Shown one piece after another: positions 2,723 through 63,475 of a stretch of 64,000 nt of DNA. Positions within the stretch are counted from its first letter, which is position 1. The number at the start of each line of letters is the position of its first letter. The notes under the pieces were generated by a model that was not told where the DNA came from, searched no databases, and saw nothing but the letters and a program-made list of their open reading frames with translations. This stretch comes from Desulfobulbaceae bacterium (GTDB lineage: Bacteria; Desulfobacterota; Desulfobulbia; Desulfobulbales; SURF-16): NCBI GenBank assembly GCA_020444175.1, contig JAHLLM010000005.1, positions 4,210-68,209 on the forward strand, in the 5' to 3' direction. The translations under genes and the position numbers were made by a program.

Positions 2723-3790
2723 ATGTTTGCCCAGTTTGAAAATATTGATGAAAAGCTCCTTGAGCTTGAAGGAAAACTGTCAGACCCGTCTGTGCTCAGT
2801 AACCAGGATGAGTACAGCAAAGTGGCCAGAGAGCATTCCCGCGTTTCCAAGCTCCATGAACTGTACCATAAATACAAACGGGTTGAGCAGGAACTGACGG
2901 AAAGCCAGGAGCTTCTTCAGGAAGAAGATGACGAGGAAATGCGTGAACTCGCCAAAAGCGAGGTTGCGGACTTAACCGAGAAGTCGAAAACCCTTGAGCA
3001 GGATCTGCGGATAATGCTGTTGCCCAGAGATCCCAATGATGAGAAGAACATTCTCCTTGAGATCAGGGCAGGTACCGGCGGCGATGAAGCAGCTCTTTTT
3101 GTCAGCGACCTGTTCAGGATGTATTCCAAATTTGCCGAAACCATGGGCTGGAAAGTTGAGATCATGAGCAGCAATCCCATTGGAATCGGGGGATTTAAGG
3201 AAATTATTGCTTTAATCAGCGGCAATCAGGTGTACAGCCAGTTGAAATATGAGTCCGGCGTGCATCGCGTGCAACGTGTTCCTGAAACGGAAACCCAGGG
3301 TAGAATTCACACATCTGCGGTTACCGTGGCTGTTATTCCTGAAGCCGAAGAGGTGGAACTGCATATCGAGCCCAATGAATTAAGGTTTGATGTATTCCGT
3401 TCTTCAGGTCCCGGCGGTCAGAGCGTCAATACCACTGATTCGGCCGTGCGCATTACCCATATTCCCACCGGTCTTGTTGTTACCTGTCAGGATGAAAAAT
3501 CCCAGCACAAGAATAAGGCAAAGGCCTTAACCGTTATGCGGGCCCGTCTCCTGGACCAGATTCAGCAGGAGCAGCATGACCGCATTTCGGAAGAGCGTAA
3601 AAGCCAGGTGGGCAGCGGCGACCGCAGTGAAAGAATACGTACCTACAACTTCCCCCAGGGACGGCTGACTGATCATCGTATAAATTTGACTCTTTACAAA
3701 CTCGAAGATATTATGATTGGTAAGTTGCATTTTGTTATTGATCCTTTAATTGCTCATTATCAGGCAGAGACATTAAAAACTCTTCAGTAA
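2723..3790 (+). CDS. prfA: Peptide chain release factor 1
   Basis: 355 aa with the PET-type recognition region ([10 protein letters not shown]) and the GGQ motif ([20 protein letters not shown]). Confidence 0.97.
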
Positions 3791-21375: not shown

Positions 21376-21452
21376 CGGGATGTAGCGCAGTCTGGTAGCG
21401 CATCTGCTTCGGGAGCAGGGGGTCGGAGGTTCAAATCCTCTCATCCCGACCA
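21376..21452 (+). tRNA. tRNA-Pro (anticodon CGG)
   Basis: Hand-folded cloverleaf: acceptor CGGGATG/CATCCCG, D-arm GCGC-AGTCTGGTA-GCGC, anticodon loop TTCGGGA, T-arm GGAGG-TTCAAAT-CCTCT, encoded CCA. Confidence 0.93.
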
Positions 21453-21582
21453 GTTATATCAAATACTTACAGGTAATAAAATCTTAACTGAGAGTTCTTG
21501 GGCGGGGCTTATCTTTTTTAACCTGTGAATGGAGTTGTTTTTGAGATTTCCGGATCTTTCTCTAAACTCTCAAAAAAAAGCA

Positions 21583-21879
21583 TCAAGTTTTTATCAGTTC
21601 CCAATCCCAATACAGATTTTTTACCTGAGTTCGGATTGTCCCGTCTGGATGTATGAGTCTGGCTTTTAACCATGGCTTACTGTCTCCATCCATATTGACT
21701 TCAGCCACTTCATATTTTCTGCTGGCCGATTCAACTGTGCTGCCAGGCTTAACATTCCAAAGCTGCCTTGCTCTCTTTCTTTCCAGTACTGATATCTGTT
21801 CACGGACTGCTTGCAGTTCATCAGTCAACCTGGCTTCAGTGTCTCTGAGTATTTCGATTTTGTGGTCAATGCTTTTCAT
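21583..21879 (-). CDS. Hypothetical protein (98 aa, N-terminal coiled coil), island-borne
   Basis: Clean ORF whose ATG overlaps the end of the integrase C-terminal fragment. I recognise no family. Confidence 0.5.
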   Translation of the reverse strand: MKSIDHKIEILRDTEARLTDELQAVREQISVLERKRARQLWNVKPGSTVESASRKYEVAEVNMDGDSKPWLKARLIHPDGTIRTQVKNLYWDWELIKT

Positions 21880-22480
21880 TTATTTTTTTCTCTGGTTCTT
21901 CCATGGGAAAAGTTACCTCATCCATGGCAGCTTTCGCACTTTGATCAATAGTTGATAAATAAATTTCTGTGGTCCGGACATCCTGATGTCTCAGAAGTCA
22001 CCCATCTTTTATTTTCCTGGTTCTCAGAGTGACTATTTTATGTTTAAAATCCACATGCTCCCATTCAAGCCTTAATACCTCATCGATGCGACCCAAGAGA
22101 TGAAGGGTAGTGGTTATCAGATCCCGCTCATCTGTCTTCGGATCGGCCGCAAATATGAGCTGACCGATTTCTTTCTTACTTGCTATTTTTTTCTTGGCTT
22201 TCTCATGTGGCATTTTATCCACTACACCACAGGGATTATGAGTGATGATTTGCATCTTATCCCGGGCGTAAGTGAACATGGCAGAAATATCGTTCCTGCG
22301 GGCATTCCACTGATTATTTGAGGCTAGGGTCAGAAGGTATGAGATTACATCCAACCCTTCTTTTGCTTGTCGTAGCAGACTGCCATAAAGGTCACCTTTA
22401 CTGAATCGGGTCATGAAAGGGGTAACGTCTGCTTTTGGCTTTTGTTCTTTGATGTTGTTCAGATGTTTTTCAGCACCCTG
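21866..22480 (-). pseudogene. Tyrosine recombinase/integrase pseudogene (internal deletion with in-frame stop)
   Basis: The N-terminal SAM-like region and the Arg-I box (LLGRIDEVLRLEWEHVDF) read to TGA at 22000-21998. The next in-frame codons encode LLRHQDVRTTEIYLSTIDQS, the C-terminal His/Tyr box. The ~100 aa between the two catalytic segments are missing. Confidence 0.75.
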
Positions 22481-22544
22481 CAAAACCTTATATGTTAAGG
22501 GCCCGTGCGAGTTCGATTCTCGCTCTGATATAGCAAAATAAAAG

Positions 22545-22769
22545 TTAAACAGCCTCTTTGAGCTTCTCTGCAATCCATACTTTAACAAGGGCCTGCCTTG
22601 TTATTCCAAGTCTTTTTGACTCCTTGTCAAGCTTTGTTACTACCCATGCCGGAAAGTCTATATTGACGCGCTTAGGCTCTTGATTGATACGCCGAGCTTT
22701 TGAAAAATCAAGATCACCCGTCATATCTTCGCCAGCATCAAATTTTTTATCAAATTCTTTAGCTTTCAT
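22545..22769 (-). CDS. brnA: BrnA-type antitoxin (CopG/RHH family)
   Basis: 74 aa with KRVNIDFPAWVVTKLDKESKRLGITRQALVKVWI, typical of BrnA. Overlaps the brnT stop by 11 nt. Confidence 0.8.
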   Translation of the reverse strand: MKAKEFDKKFDAGEDMTGDLDFSKARRINQEPKRVNIDFPAWVVTKLDKESKRLGITRQALVKVWIAEKLKEAV

Positions 22770-23022
22770 AATATTGAATCTCCTTTTCCCTTGAGCGACG
22801 GGCAGAAATAATTCTTATCGAGTCGTTTCTGTAAGTAATAACAACAGACCAGTGTTTTTTGTCGATTTTTCCTATTACAAGACAACGCCCTTCGTCCTGT
22901 ACTGTTTTTGCCGGAATTTCTAACACGTCCCAATCATCCCAAAGAGCTTGTACCTCGTCAAAATCAATACCGTGTTTGAGCTTATTGGTTTCGCTCTTTT
23001 TTTCGTCAAAATCAAATCTCAT
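22759..23022 (-). CDS. brnT: BrnT-type ribonuclease toxin (DUF497)
   Basis: From MRFDFDEKKSETNKLKHGIDFDEV...RCLVIGK...VVITYRNDSIRIISARRSREKE, the DUF497/BrnT pattern. The ORF-track N-terminal extension (to 23073) is unlikely. Confidence 0.85.
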   Translation of the reverse strand: MRFDFDEKKSETNKLKHGIDFDEVQALWDDWDVLEIPAKTVQDEGRCLVIGKIDKKHWSVVITYRNDSIRIISARRSREKEIQYYES

Positions 23023-60950: not shown

Positions 60951-61512
60951 CGGTTCGCCACGGAGGAAGGGGAATACGGAAGTTTTACTTGCTGCCGTGG
61001 AAAAGGGCATTTTGTCTGCCGGAGGTGAAATGGAGATTGTGAGACTGGCTGATTTGGATATTTCTCCATGTATAAGCTGCGGTGGCTGTGACAAAACAGG
61101 GGTCTGCGTCGTTGAGGACGGAATGACCGCATTATATGAAAAGATTGATGGCTCCAGGAGGATCATCCTTGCTTCGCCTATCTATTTTTATAGTATTACG
61201 GCCCAGGCAAAGGCATTTGTTGACAGGAGCCAGGCAATGTGGAGCAAGAAGTATCTTCTTAAAAAAAAGGGGGAATGGCAGGAAGACCCTGATCGGCTTG
61301 GGTATTTTGTGTCCGTGGCTGCTACCAGAGGGGAAAAAATTTTTGAAGGAGCGGAATTGACTGCCAGGTATTTTTATGACGCTATTGGTTTTCATTACTG
61401 CAATTCTTTGCTGGTAAAGGGGATTGATAAACGGGGTGAGATGGCTGCAGCCGAAGAAAAGATCAAAGCAGGGGAGGAGTTCGGCCGGAAAATAGCGGCG
61501 GGAGACTGTTAA
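60928..61512 (+). CDS. Iron-sulfur flavoprotein (NADPH-dependent FMN reductase / flavodoxin-like fold)
   Basis: MLKVLAFNGSPRRKGNT, the compact Cys motif CISCGGCDKTGVC, and SPIYF.S..AQ.K.F.DR. Confidence 0.85.
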   Translation: MLKVLAFNGSPRRKGNTEVLLAAVEKGILSAGGEMEIVRLADLDISPCISCGGCDKTGVCVVEDGMTALYEKIDGSRRIILASPIYFYSITAQAKAFVDRSQAMWSKKYLLKKKGEWQEDPDRLGYFVSVAATRGEKIFEGAELTARYFYDAIGFHYCNSLLVKGIDKRGEMAAAEEKIKAGEEFGRKIAAGDC

Positions 61513-61759
61513 GAAATGTCGGAGTGGGTGAAATACTCCTTGATGGGGGAAATGACCCGTTGATGTGTGGGGTGTGGCAAATGACCCATGTGGTTTTCCC
61601 CTTTTTTGGACAAAGTAAATTTTTTTTATTCGTGGTTAACTTGCTGAAAAGATGAAGGATGTAAAAAATGTTGAGGTTAAAGAAAGCTGTTGGATTGGAA
61701 ATTGCTATTTAGTATCCTGAAAATTGCACATATAAATTTTTAGTATCGATGATTGCGAA

Positions 61760-61827
61760 TAAAAAAAGGTCAGAGAGACCCCCATCTCTCTGACCTTGCT
61801 CCGAAAAAGGAGTAAAAAATGAATGCT
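61760..61827 (-). ncRNA. Predicted ~68-nt cis-antisense small RNA (candidate type I antitoxin)
   Basis: Lies between a consensus minus-strand promoter and a perfect 12-bp stem (61796-61767, loop TGGGGG on the minus strand) plus a U6-7 tail. Complementary to the SD, the start codon and the first codons of the 61819-61902 ORF. Confidence 0.5.
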
Positions 61828-61902
61828 TCTTCAATTATATTTACCTTAAGTCTACTTTGTCAAGTATTTATATTTATCTTTTTTATACTTCGGCATGGAT
61901 AA
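61819..61902 (+). CDS. 27-aa hydrophobic peptide (candidate type I toxin), not in the ORF track
   Basis: AAGGAG, 6 nt, ATG. Peptide MNASSIIFTLSLLCQVFIFIFFILRHG: one TM-length hydrophobic stretch with a polar/basic C-terminus. Followed by a bidirectional terminator. Confidence 0.4.
   Translation: MNASSIIFTLSLLCQVFIFIFFILRHG
61834..61863 (-). promoter_or_regulatory. Consensus sigma-70 promoter on the minus strand, inside the small ORF
   Basis: The reverse complement reads TTGACA (61863-61858), an 18-nt spacer aagtagacttaaggtaaa, then TATAAT (61839-61834). Confidence 0.6.
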
Positions 61903-61933
61903 AAAGACATGTAGATAAAAAAAGTGTGCAATT

Positions 61934-61968
61934 AAAAAAAGCAAGGCTATTTGCCTTGCTTTTTTTTT
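61934..61968. terminator. Bidirectional rho-independent terminator
   Basis: A7 run, GCAAGGC-tatt-GCCTTGC, then a T10 run. Confidence 0.8.
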
Positions 61969-62044
61969 ACCTGAAATTCTTTCTGGTTAGCTGTTTTGGG
62001 AGATTGGGCAATCTGAAATGGTTTTTTGTGTCGCGATATAGTTC

Positions 62045-62091: not shown

Positions 62092-62166
<75 letters not shown>

Positions 62167-62423: not shown

Positions 62424-62585
62424 ATGGAGCTTTTTAAAATTATCTGTGCAATAATACTTCCACCTTTGGGAGTATTCCTTCAGGTTGGAATCGGGAAACA
62501 TTTCTGGATTAATATTATTCTCACCTTACTAGGCTATGTCCCCGGCATTGTCCATGCCGTATGGGTGGTTGCAAAAAAGAAGTAA
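62424..62585 (+). CDS. Pmp3/YqaE (UPF0057) family small membrane proteolipid, 53 aa (below the ORF-track cutoff)
   Basis: MELFKIICAIILPPLGVFLQVGIGKHFWINIILTLLGYVPGIVHAVWVVAKKK. The ILPPLGV...LT.LG..PG..HA pattern is characteristic of the family. Confidence 0.8.
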   Translation: MELFKIICAIILPPLGVFLQVGIGKHFWINIILTLLGYVPGIVHAVWVVAKKK

Positions 62586-62684
62586 TCATGTACTGTAATG
62601 TGCATTGCCCCAGCGCTCTTTTGTTGTGCGGCTATTATGATTTTTTTGTTTTATTTCAGTGGAATGGCATTATTTGATGAATCA

Positions 62685-63032
62685 ATGAAAAAAGTGGTAA
62701 AAATGAAAAGAATAAGCGTACTCATCTGGTTGTTTGCAGGTTTGGTTTTAATTTCATGTTCCGTGCCTGTAAAATTCGGTCAACCTCTTGCTATGGATAA
62801 GATTCAGGGAATTTCAAAAGGGCTCAGCTCTCAAGATGTTGAGACGCTGCTGGGAGAACCTCTGACTGTTGGTCGAAACAAGGAGGGGCAAGAGACCTGG
62901 AGCTGGTATTACCTGCAGGCCGATTTGCCTGCCAAGCCCGGAAAAGACCCGGTGGTTCAGCGACTAACAATCAGTTTTGACCAAGGACAGGTTGTCTCCA
63001 CTGAGTATGATATGTCTAAGACCGGCAAATAA
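62685..63032 (+). CDS. Small outer-membrane lipoprotein, BamE/SmpA-OmlA-like
   Basis: Lipobox LVLISC after MKKVVKMKRISVLIWLFAG. The mature part (GLSSQDVETLLGEPL...W.Y) resembles BamE. Start ATG 62685 or 62703; the ORF-track start 62598 is unlikely. Confidence 0.55.
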   Translation: MKKVVKMKRISVLIWLFAGLVLISCSVPVKFGQPLAMDKIQGISKGLSSQDVETLLGEPLTVGRNKEGQETWSWYYLQADLPAKPGKDPVVQRLTISFDQGQVVSTEYDMSKTGK

Positions 63033-63151
63033 CATATTCACAGTCTATATATTCACTGGTTTTTTGGATGAATCTTTTTTCCATTCGGCCTCTCATGCTG
63101 AAGGCATAAATCCTGATTTTTTAATTCACTTGCTCTGTGGTGGAAGAAAAA

Positions 63152-63475
63152 ATGAAAGTAGATTACAGAAATCAAGCGCTGAAGATCTTGCCGTGGGTCT
63201 GTGCCAAGTGCGGTCGTGAGTTTGCCGGTAAAAAACTGCGTGAGCTGACGGTTCATCACAAAGATCATAATTATATGAATAATCCACCGGACGGCAGCAA
63301 CTGGGAGCTGTTGTGCATCTATTGTCACGATAACGAGCACTCCCGATCTCTGGAAGCTGAATGGCAGAACACTCAAGTTTCTGATATTGAAAAAGGCCCG
63401 ACAGCAACCCATAGTCCCTTTTCAGATCTCAAAAAAATGTTGGGCGGGACCGGCGATCACAATAAAAAAAAATGA
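63152..63475 (+). CDS. yajD: HNH nuclease family protein YajD
   Basis: ALKI.PWVC..C.REF....LRELTVHH.DH...NNP.DGSNWELLC.YCHD.EHS is nearly collinear with E. coli YajD as I recall it. Start taken at ATG 63152. Confidence 0.9.
   Translation: MKVDYRNQALKILPWVCAKCGREFAGKKLRELTVHHKDHNYMNNPPDGSNWELLCIYCHDNEHSRSLEAEWQNTQVSDIEKGPTATHSPFSDLKKMLGGTGDHNKKK

Follow-up and report, generated by a model that had tools for sequence, protein, structure and literature searches.

Does the AT-rich spacer between a flavoprotein gene and a tRNA-Glu gene in an uncultured Desulfobulbaceae lineage hold a type I toxin-antitoxin (TA)-like pair, in which an antisense RNA covers the translation start of a small membrane peptide, or do its signals have a simpler source? 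We addressed this in a 64-kb stretch of a metagenome-assembled genome (MAG), here called the window and read on both strands (128 kb); same-strain Logan contigs are 100% identical and hold no polymorphism information. What the analysis establishes directly are sequence signals, their rarity in the genome window, the complementarity, predicted folds and the borders of an insertion (Table 1). The type I TA-like layout put forward in the original prediction is real and statistically unusual; the elements that did not materialize, in the window or in the collections searched, are a convincing sense promoter and homologues or a second copy. With a confidence somewhat short of even, we read the locus as a self-contained cassette encoding a sense/antisense pair that would work like a type I TA module, an interpretation that is credible but unproven.

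Table 1. Features of the flavoprotein/tRNA-Glu spacer, with positions counted from the first nucleotide of the window.
Feature	Position	Strand	Remarks
Flavoprotein stop codon	61510-61512
Lineage-specific insertion, ~471 nt, carrying the whole module	61499..61970	no strand	from relatives' spacing and junction comparison
Left part of insert, GC-normal	61545..61607	+	GGGGGAAA...UUUUCCCC stem, then U6; z = -0.4
Long imperfect hairpin with G-U pairs	61625..61763	+ only	z = -3.1 (minus strand, +0.2)
Weak sense-promoter candidate	from 61695	+	TTGGAA(61695)-18-GAAAAT; 8/12
Weak sense-promoter candidate	61717..61746	+	CTGAAA(61717)-18-TAGTAT(61741-61746); 8/12
Predicted antisense RNA, ~67 nt	61761..61827	-	tail, CUCC/GGAG hairpin, terminator
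Antisense terminator hairpin	61766-61797	-	arms 61766-61778 / 61785-61797, T7 after
Anti-SD CUCC (61799-61802) paired with SD AAGGAG (61807-61812)	61799..61812	+	MFE and centroid folds
Putative 27-codon ORF MNASSIIFTLSLLCQVFIFIFFILRHG	61819..61902	+	single TM-length hydrophobic segment, basic C-terminus
Sigma-70 promoter of antisense RNA, 12/12 consensus	61834..61863	-	TTGACA 61863-61858, 18-nt spacer, TATAAT 61839-61834
A/T-rich UP-like tract upstream of antisense -35	61864-61890	-
Bidirectional intrinsic terminator	61934..61968	both	arms 61934-61947 / 61953-61966, 14 bp perfect; A7 upstream, T9 downstream
tRNA-Glu(CTC)	62092-62166

The best-supported element of the locus, as judged from sequence, is the putative antisense RNA gene on the minus strand. 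Its promoter, described in the original prediction as textbook, agrees with the consensus at every position and is the sole exact match to TTGACA-N16-18-TATAAT in the window, against 0.04 expected from dinucleotide shuffles. From the position of the -10 box we placed the start of the RNA near 61827. A strong terminator of the pattern AGGTCAGAGAGA-N6-TCTCTCTGACCT follows on the same strand, 37-73 nt downstream of the promoter. A perfect 12-bp hairpin with a U6-7 run had been proposed here, and the stem holds 13 perfect base pairs, or 14 with a G-U pair, ahead of T7, which reads as A7 at 61761-61767 on the plus strand. The signals predict a discrete RNA of ~67 nt, close to the ~68 nt first suggested, with a fold of -28.4 kcal/mol (z = -5.6) in which a 5′ tail of 15 nt is left wholly unpaired, followed by a 4-bp CUCC/GGAG hairpin and by the 13-14-bp terminator hairpin with U7. 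Under a stringent definition, which asks for a perfect stem of 8 bp or more, at least 4 G-C pairs and a T-rich tail, the 128 kb contain only six intrinsic terminators, and three of these lie inside this insert. The joint chance of a perfect promoter and such a terminator within ~70 nt on the same strand is of the rough order of 10^-4 (0.04 x (6/128,000 x 70)). Going by these signals, the predicted RNA has the properties of a cis-antisense RNA, with a length within 60-200 nt, a promoter and terminator of its own, and pairing with the putative toxin mRNA.

An attenuator, with promoter and terminator forming the leader of a minus-strand gene, was considered and rejected, as the only ORF downstream is one of 26-34 aa at 61509-61613 and no credible gene follows. 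That putative ORF, MGHLPHPTHQRVISPIKEYFTHSDIS, is His/Pro-rich, counts 26 aa from an ATG after AAGGGG, and lies downstream of the antisense terminator, where it is convergent with the flavoprotein gene and overlaps its stop codon.

The promoter and terminator evidence concerns the RNA alone, which favors the main rival explanation, a stand-alone and probably trans-acting sRNA gene. Its CUCCUUU (anti-SD-like) motif and U-rich 5′ tail would target the ribosome-binding sites of other mRNAs, and this motif, together with the A-rich stretch before the promoter, would give rise to the ORF as a by-product. The locus does resemble generic trans-acting sRNA genes with C/U-rich anti-SD seeds in its promoter, short body, intrinsic terminator and SD-pairing CUCCUUU, but such genes are not normally exactly antisense to an SD, an ATG and a hydrophobic ORF with its own terminator. 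Two further points speak against a trans-acting role: the anti-SD motif is paired within the RNA's own small hairpin, and the sole longer trans match seen in the window, 14 nt at 670-683, falls between genes, ahead of rho on the other strand, rather than at a gene start, so that it was rejected as a target.

On the plus strand, the predicted antisense RNA is fully complementary to the SD, the AUG and codons 1-3 of the putative ORF, in agreement with the cover that had been claimed. The SD lies 6 nt ahead of the ATG, and the 27-codon frame does have the TM-length hydrophobic segment and basic C-terminus attributed to it, with a maximum 17-aa Kyte-Doolittle mean of 2.65; by sequence it would encode a hydrophobic peptide of less than ~60 aa with a single TM segment, behind a ribosome-binding site. 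Counting both strands, the window has 37 ORFs of 18-60 aa with SD and ATG, and this one alone has a 17-aa mean of at least 2.0. No other small SD+ATG ORF in the 128 kb is hydrophobic by this measure, and that this one coincides exactly with the 5′ end of the sRNA weighs against a stand-alone sRNA.

The chance of such a frame was estimated with dinucleotide and body shuffles. With the SD fixed and 61813-61935 dinucleotide-shuffled, the probability of an ATG at 4-9 nt together with a hydrophobic ORF of at least 18 codons is 0.001. This 0.1% null flatters the ORF, because the ORF body mirrors the antisense promoter and the A-rich tract upstream of the -35 box (...GAAGTATAAAAAAGATAAATATAAATAC-TTGACA), of which it is the complement and from which its T-richness (48% T) follows. 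When SD and ATG are kept in place and only the T-rich body is shuffled, 39% of frames run for 18 codons or more without a stop and 10% are hydrophobic as well, and the ORF by itself is therefore not compelling. A fair estimate for a by-product ORF is a chance of about 1% given the SD-like complement (~0.11 x 0.10) and about 10% given SD and ATG. The A-rich region upstream of the antisense promoter could yield part of the hydrophobicity of the peptide as a by-product. T occupies codon positions 1, 2 and 3 in 9, 16 and 14 of the 27 codons, without significant enrichment at position 2. The stand-alone sRNA gains from these figures, since the conservative null for an ATG and an open hydrophobic frame is ~1% at a locus that was picked post hoc in the original prediction, and T is not clearly enriched at the second codon position. 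Two repeats were dismissed as chance level for AT-rich DNA, namely a 33-nt tandem repeat in the ORF (61835-61900, 73% identity) and the repeated GTAAAAAATG (61661, 61812).

How the sense RNA would be made is less distinct. A convincing sense-strand promoter had already been reported missing, and we likewise found nothing above 8/12 on the plus strand between 61500 and 61830; matches of this class, including the two candidates in Table 1, are indistinct because they occur at ~7 per kb across the plus strand of the window. For reference, the -10 box in the conserved tRNA-Glu promoter of the clade is TAGTTA/TAGGTA in our own reading of the alignment. Read-through from malQ-flavoprotein is a possible alternative source of sense RNA, because the terminator-like fold upstream of the module (61545-61607) is weak and not significant; this stem with its U6 is possibly a leaky terminator of the flavoprotein transcript. 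Just past the flavoprotein stop, inside the insert, (T)G..G.AAATGACCC occurs in two direct copies 29 nt apart (61544-61587), which could be a protein-binding site or a portion of the weak terminator-like fold.

Within the modeled sense RNA, the long hairpin at 61625-61763, predicted on the plus strand only, may on weak evidence be a structured 5′ UTR. The pairing of the SD with an upstream CTCC, suggested earlier, is seen in both MFE and centroid folds. GGAG is paired for all modeled sense 5′ ends, and the AUG, with 61862-61871 as partner, has an unpaired probability of 0.04-0.27. About 31-32 nt separate the ORF stop codon from the bidirectional hairpin, which had been called a strong terminator and is indeed a perfect one; it would be the 3′ end of any sense transcript. 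Complementarity between the 5′ and 3′ portions of the sense RNA is limited to 9 nt (61722-61730 / 61925-61933), a chance-level value. The descriptors of T1TAdb are an SD/anti-SD, a 5′ stem-loop, a 3′ terminator, an mRNA of 200-400 nt and an antisense RNA of 60-200 nt (PMC8594479). The predicted fold of the sense RNA has the SD/anti-SD, the 5′ stem-loop and the 3′ terminator, which is weak support because its 5′ stem-loop and SD hairpin automatically mirror the hairpins of the sRNA.

The lack of a convincing sense promoter is a further argument for the stand-alone sRNA. However, that explanation leaves unaccounted for a second, plus-oriented terminator after the ORF stop and the ~260 nt of cassette to the left of the sRNA. 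The position of this terminator, ~32 nt after the ORF stop and at the exact end of the insert, together with these ~260 nt, argues for a plus-strand transcription unit in the cassette besides the sRNA. Weighing both sides, we consider a stand-alone sRNA possible but rather doubtful, and we continue to favor the sense/antisense pair.

The setting of the locus bears on its origin. From flavoprotein stop to tRNA-Glu the spacer measures 579 nt, in line with the AT-rich spacer of ~580 nt reported before, and the insert within it has 35% GC against 46% for the whole window. Related loci were gathered from a flavoprotein scan of metagenome contigs (80 loci), a protein-database search and 4 more loci. 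In 51 of these related loci (47 from metagenomes and the 4 further ones), the distance from flavoprotein to tRNA-Glu is 41-228 nt and the insert is absent; in the closest relatives the spacing is 48-74 nt, and the conserved tRNA promoter takes up most of this distance. The nearest flavoprotein relatives have only 74-78% identity, and a MalQ scan of genome contigs for orthologous spacers gave a best match of 57% identity without synteny.

Comparison of the junctions places the borders at 61499/61500 and 61969/61970, with a 1-nt ambiguity (C). The flavoprotein of the closest relatives ends in ...EEFGR(K/R)IVA and a stop, with GCCTGAAA(A)TT as the DNA sequence at this point. In the window, the left junction joins ...ATAGCGGC to GGGAGACTGTTAA (in its longer form ...AAAATAGCGGC to GGGAGACTGTTAA), and three codons have been gained (GDC and the stop). 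At the right junction CCTGAAATTC resumes at 61970, directly after the T-run of the bidirectional terminator. Removal of 61500-61970 in silico gives ...KIAA and a stop followed by AATTC, colinear with the relatives, and the inferred empty-site sequence is ...ATAGCGGCCTGAAATTC.... The insert sits at the flavoprotein stop codon, and its right edge is exactly the bidirectional terminator. Such a discrete ~471-nt insertion would suit a self-contained cassette. The inferred borders showed neither terminal inverted repeats nor a target duplication, and a MITE or IS was rejected on these grounds; a 12-nt inverted repeat (61621-61632 / 61756-61767) is mostly a T/A run.

Integration near tRNA genes is seen elsewhere in the window and the clade. 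tRNA-Pro(CGG) at 21376-21452 is followed by an apparent remnant of an integrated element (window 21376-22770). One of its ORFs, of 196 aa on the minus strand (21998-22588), matches Phage_integrase weakly and below threshold (E 0.003); another, of 74 aa (22545-22769), is CopG/HicB-like and of antitoxin type, likewise below threshold. In L123 and L124, the closest relatives, a phage-integrase fragment lies at ~3290-3500, just 3′ of the same tRNA-Glu. In this clade the tRNA-Glu gene looks like a hot spot of integration, and the insert of the window is on its 5′ side. The genes directly downstream of tRNA-Glu (62424-63032) encode a 53-aa Pmp3/YqaE proteolipid (PF01679, E 4e-23) and a BamE-family lipoprotein, and an HNH endonuclease (63137-63475) comes next. 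As to the insert itself, canonical intrinsic terminators are very rare in the genome window (6 stringent in 128 kb) and three in 471 nt stand out, a cluster that hints at a foreign origin.

One could therefore ask whether the insert is a non-functional relic of foreign DNA, such as a mobile element end or a phage fragment, with promoter and terminators as leftovers. It is lineage-specific and low in GC, and tRNA genes in the clade attract integrations, as the integrase fragments 3′ of tRNA-Glu in L123 and L124 and 3′ of tRNA-Pro in the window illustrate. But a relic would hardly be expected to keep its signals pristine, with a 12/12 promoter and perfect stems of 13 and 14 bp; the borders have neither the inverted repeats nor the duplication sought above, searches of phages, plasmids and viral contigs gave nothing similar, and the insert sits 5′ of the tRNA promoter rather than at the tRNA 3′ end. 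We regard a relic as improbable, and the TA-like cassette as the better reading of the insertion.

Searches for relatives were uniformly negative. The multiple copies or relatives that had been sought did not appear: the cassette has no second copy in the 64-kb window and none in 125 fetched loci, phage and plasmid collections searched by DNA (plasmids also by tblastn with the peptide) gave no match, and neither did viral contigs searched with three exact patterns. None of the Rfam 15 covariance models reaches its gathering score in the spacer, the sub-threshold scores being 34.9 against 45 for ar9 (on the bidirectional terminator), 23.1 against 37 for SraC_RyeA and 18.2 against 100 for rli24. 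The 27-aa peptide matches 0 families of the Pfam-A and NCBIfam profiles at E <= 10, and these libraries include models for Hok/Gef, Ldr, TisB, Ibs, ShoB and Fst. The claimed lack of likeness to known families therefore stands, and an undescribed family is consistent with it. Two peptide matches were discarded as chance. The borderline match at window 21824-21907 is antisense inside a 98-aa ORF, a similarity of hydrophobic strings, and the one at 2147-2224 of L072 (48% over 25 aa, E 0.49) is not kept in that locus's own relatives. Toward the left of the insert, where the GC content is normal, a 43-aa ORF has 0 matches among 1.84 billion representatives. Among the collections searched, the putative cassette appears to be an orphan, single-copy in 64 kb and seen only in this Desulfobulbaceae genome; with no homologue, second copy or sequence variant in these collections, there is no evidence of selection on the ORF.

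Without sequence membership in known families, the locus could be filed only as one that ‘works like a type I TA’, and comparison must rely on architecture. The closest geometry is that of SymE/SymR in E. coli, which is said to have been described by Kawano, Aravind & Storz in 2007 and reportedly comprises a ~77-nt antisense RNA with its promoter inside the toxin coding region and a translational block. SymR starts a few nt past the symE start codon and covers the AUG and SD. The symE promoter is LexA-controlled and SymE is a ~113-aa soluble nuclease-like protein. Both loci have the antisense promoter inside the ORF and the (here predicted) RNA over AUG and SD; they differ in that SymE is a soluble protein of ~113 aa whereas the peptide here is a 27-aa predicted membrane peptide, that symE has a defined promoter, and that SymE/SymR has no sequence or Rfam similarity to the cassette.

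By analogy, the closest in type of peptide and size of cassette would be AapA/IsoA, Hok/Sok, Ldr/Rdl and Ibs/Sib. The E. coli pairs Ldr/Rdl (LDR repeats) and Ibs/Sib (QUAD repeats) are discrete intergenic cassettes of a few hundred bp, near the size of the 471-nt insert, each encoding a hydrophobic peptide of 19-35 aa and an antisense RNA in cis. Unlike the present cassette, which is single-copy in 64 kb and has no detected relative, they are multi-copy and conserved across strains, and the overlap differs as well, with Sib spanning the whole ORF and Rdl the 5′ UTR. AapA/IsoA (Helicobacter) and Hok/Sok resemble the predicted layout of the cassette, with a hydrophobic toxin of ~30-50 aa, a 60-80-nt antisense RNA over the 5′ UTR and initiation region and a strong antisense promoter, as well as a toxin mRNA with sequestered SD and 3′ terminator (PMC8594479). 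In Sok, a single-stranded 5′ tail starts pairing, as predicted for the cassette RNA. In contrast, AapA/IsoA and Hok/Sok have their own mRNA promoters, documented 5′-3′ long-distance locking and 3′ processing, where the cassette has its chance-level 9-nt complementarity; Hok uses a leader ORF (mok), and the cassette peptide is without a Pfam/NCBIfam match.

The same architecture would equally serve a non-toxic small membrane protein under antisense control, such as one that modulates a membrane complex, with no part in addiction or killing. All the architectural evidence is shared with the TA-like reading, and among bacterial membrane proteins as small as 20-50 aa, many act as regulators without being toxic. 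A cassette-like, low-GC insertion in a single lineage is nevertheless not what a conserved operon member looks like, and the imbalance between a consensus-strength antisense promoter and an unrecognizable sense promoter is typical of toxin control. We give a non-toxic protein only a slight chance.

For the TA-like cassette, the following course of events can be proposed. A cassette of ~471 nt would have entered this Desulfobulbaceae lineage alone, at the point where the flavoprotein gene has its stop codon. Its consensus promoter would drive an abundant ~67-nt RNA, while a weak internal promoter or malQ-flavoprotein read-through would supply a sense RNA made up of a 5′ hairpin, the sequestered SD and AUG, the 27-codon membrane-peptide ORF and its own terminator. 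Pairing would start between the unpaired 15-nt 5′ tail of the antisense RNA and the sequence around the AUG of the sense RNA and then spread over the SD, so that ribosome binding is blocked; the sense/antisense duplex would probably be an RNase III substrate. We infer in this scheme the transcription of either strand, the translation and toxicity of the peptide, and neutralization by the RNA. The TA-like reading is favored by the sole hydrophobic SD+ATG small ORF lying exactly under the free 5′ tail of the sRNA, by the window-unique perfect promoter, the strong terminator and the RNA fold (z = -5.6), by the sequestration of SD and AUG in all modeled sense RNAs, and by an insertion absent from 51 syntenic relatives. 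It is weakened by the indistinct sense promoter, by an ORF body that is the complement of the antisense promoter and A-rich tract, and by the lack of relatives and of a match to known toxin or antitoxin families in the searches above.

A 2025 paper gives type I systems so far only in Proteobacteria, Firmicutes and Tenericutes (PMC12390103). A more ambitious version of the TA-like reading would make the locus a new type I family, the first in Thermodesulfobacteriota (Desulfobulbaceae), as a ~470-bp unit at a host stop codon whose toxin mRNA arises by read-through or from a very weak promoter and whose antitoxin RNA is in excess; we think this unlikely. As a single, unconserved locus in a MAG, the cassette has limited immediate value under either reading, and if it is only an sRNA gene, it would be an ordinary orphan sRNA. 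A true Desulfobulbaceae example would be a modest extension of the type I range as that range is given in the 2025 paper cited above (PMC12390103). If the TA-like reading is true, the locus would represent a toxin family invisible to sequence-based catalogues (T1TAdb, Pfam, Rfam) and a clean case in which a TA cassette is seen as one insertion with exact borders, and RNA-antitoxin modules would reach an uncultured sulfate-reducer lineage.
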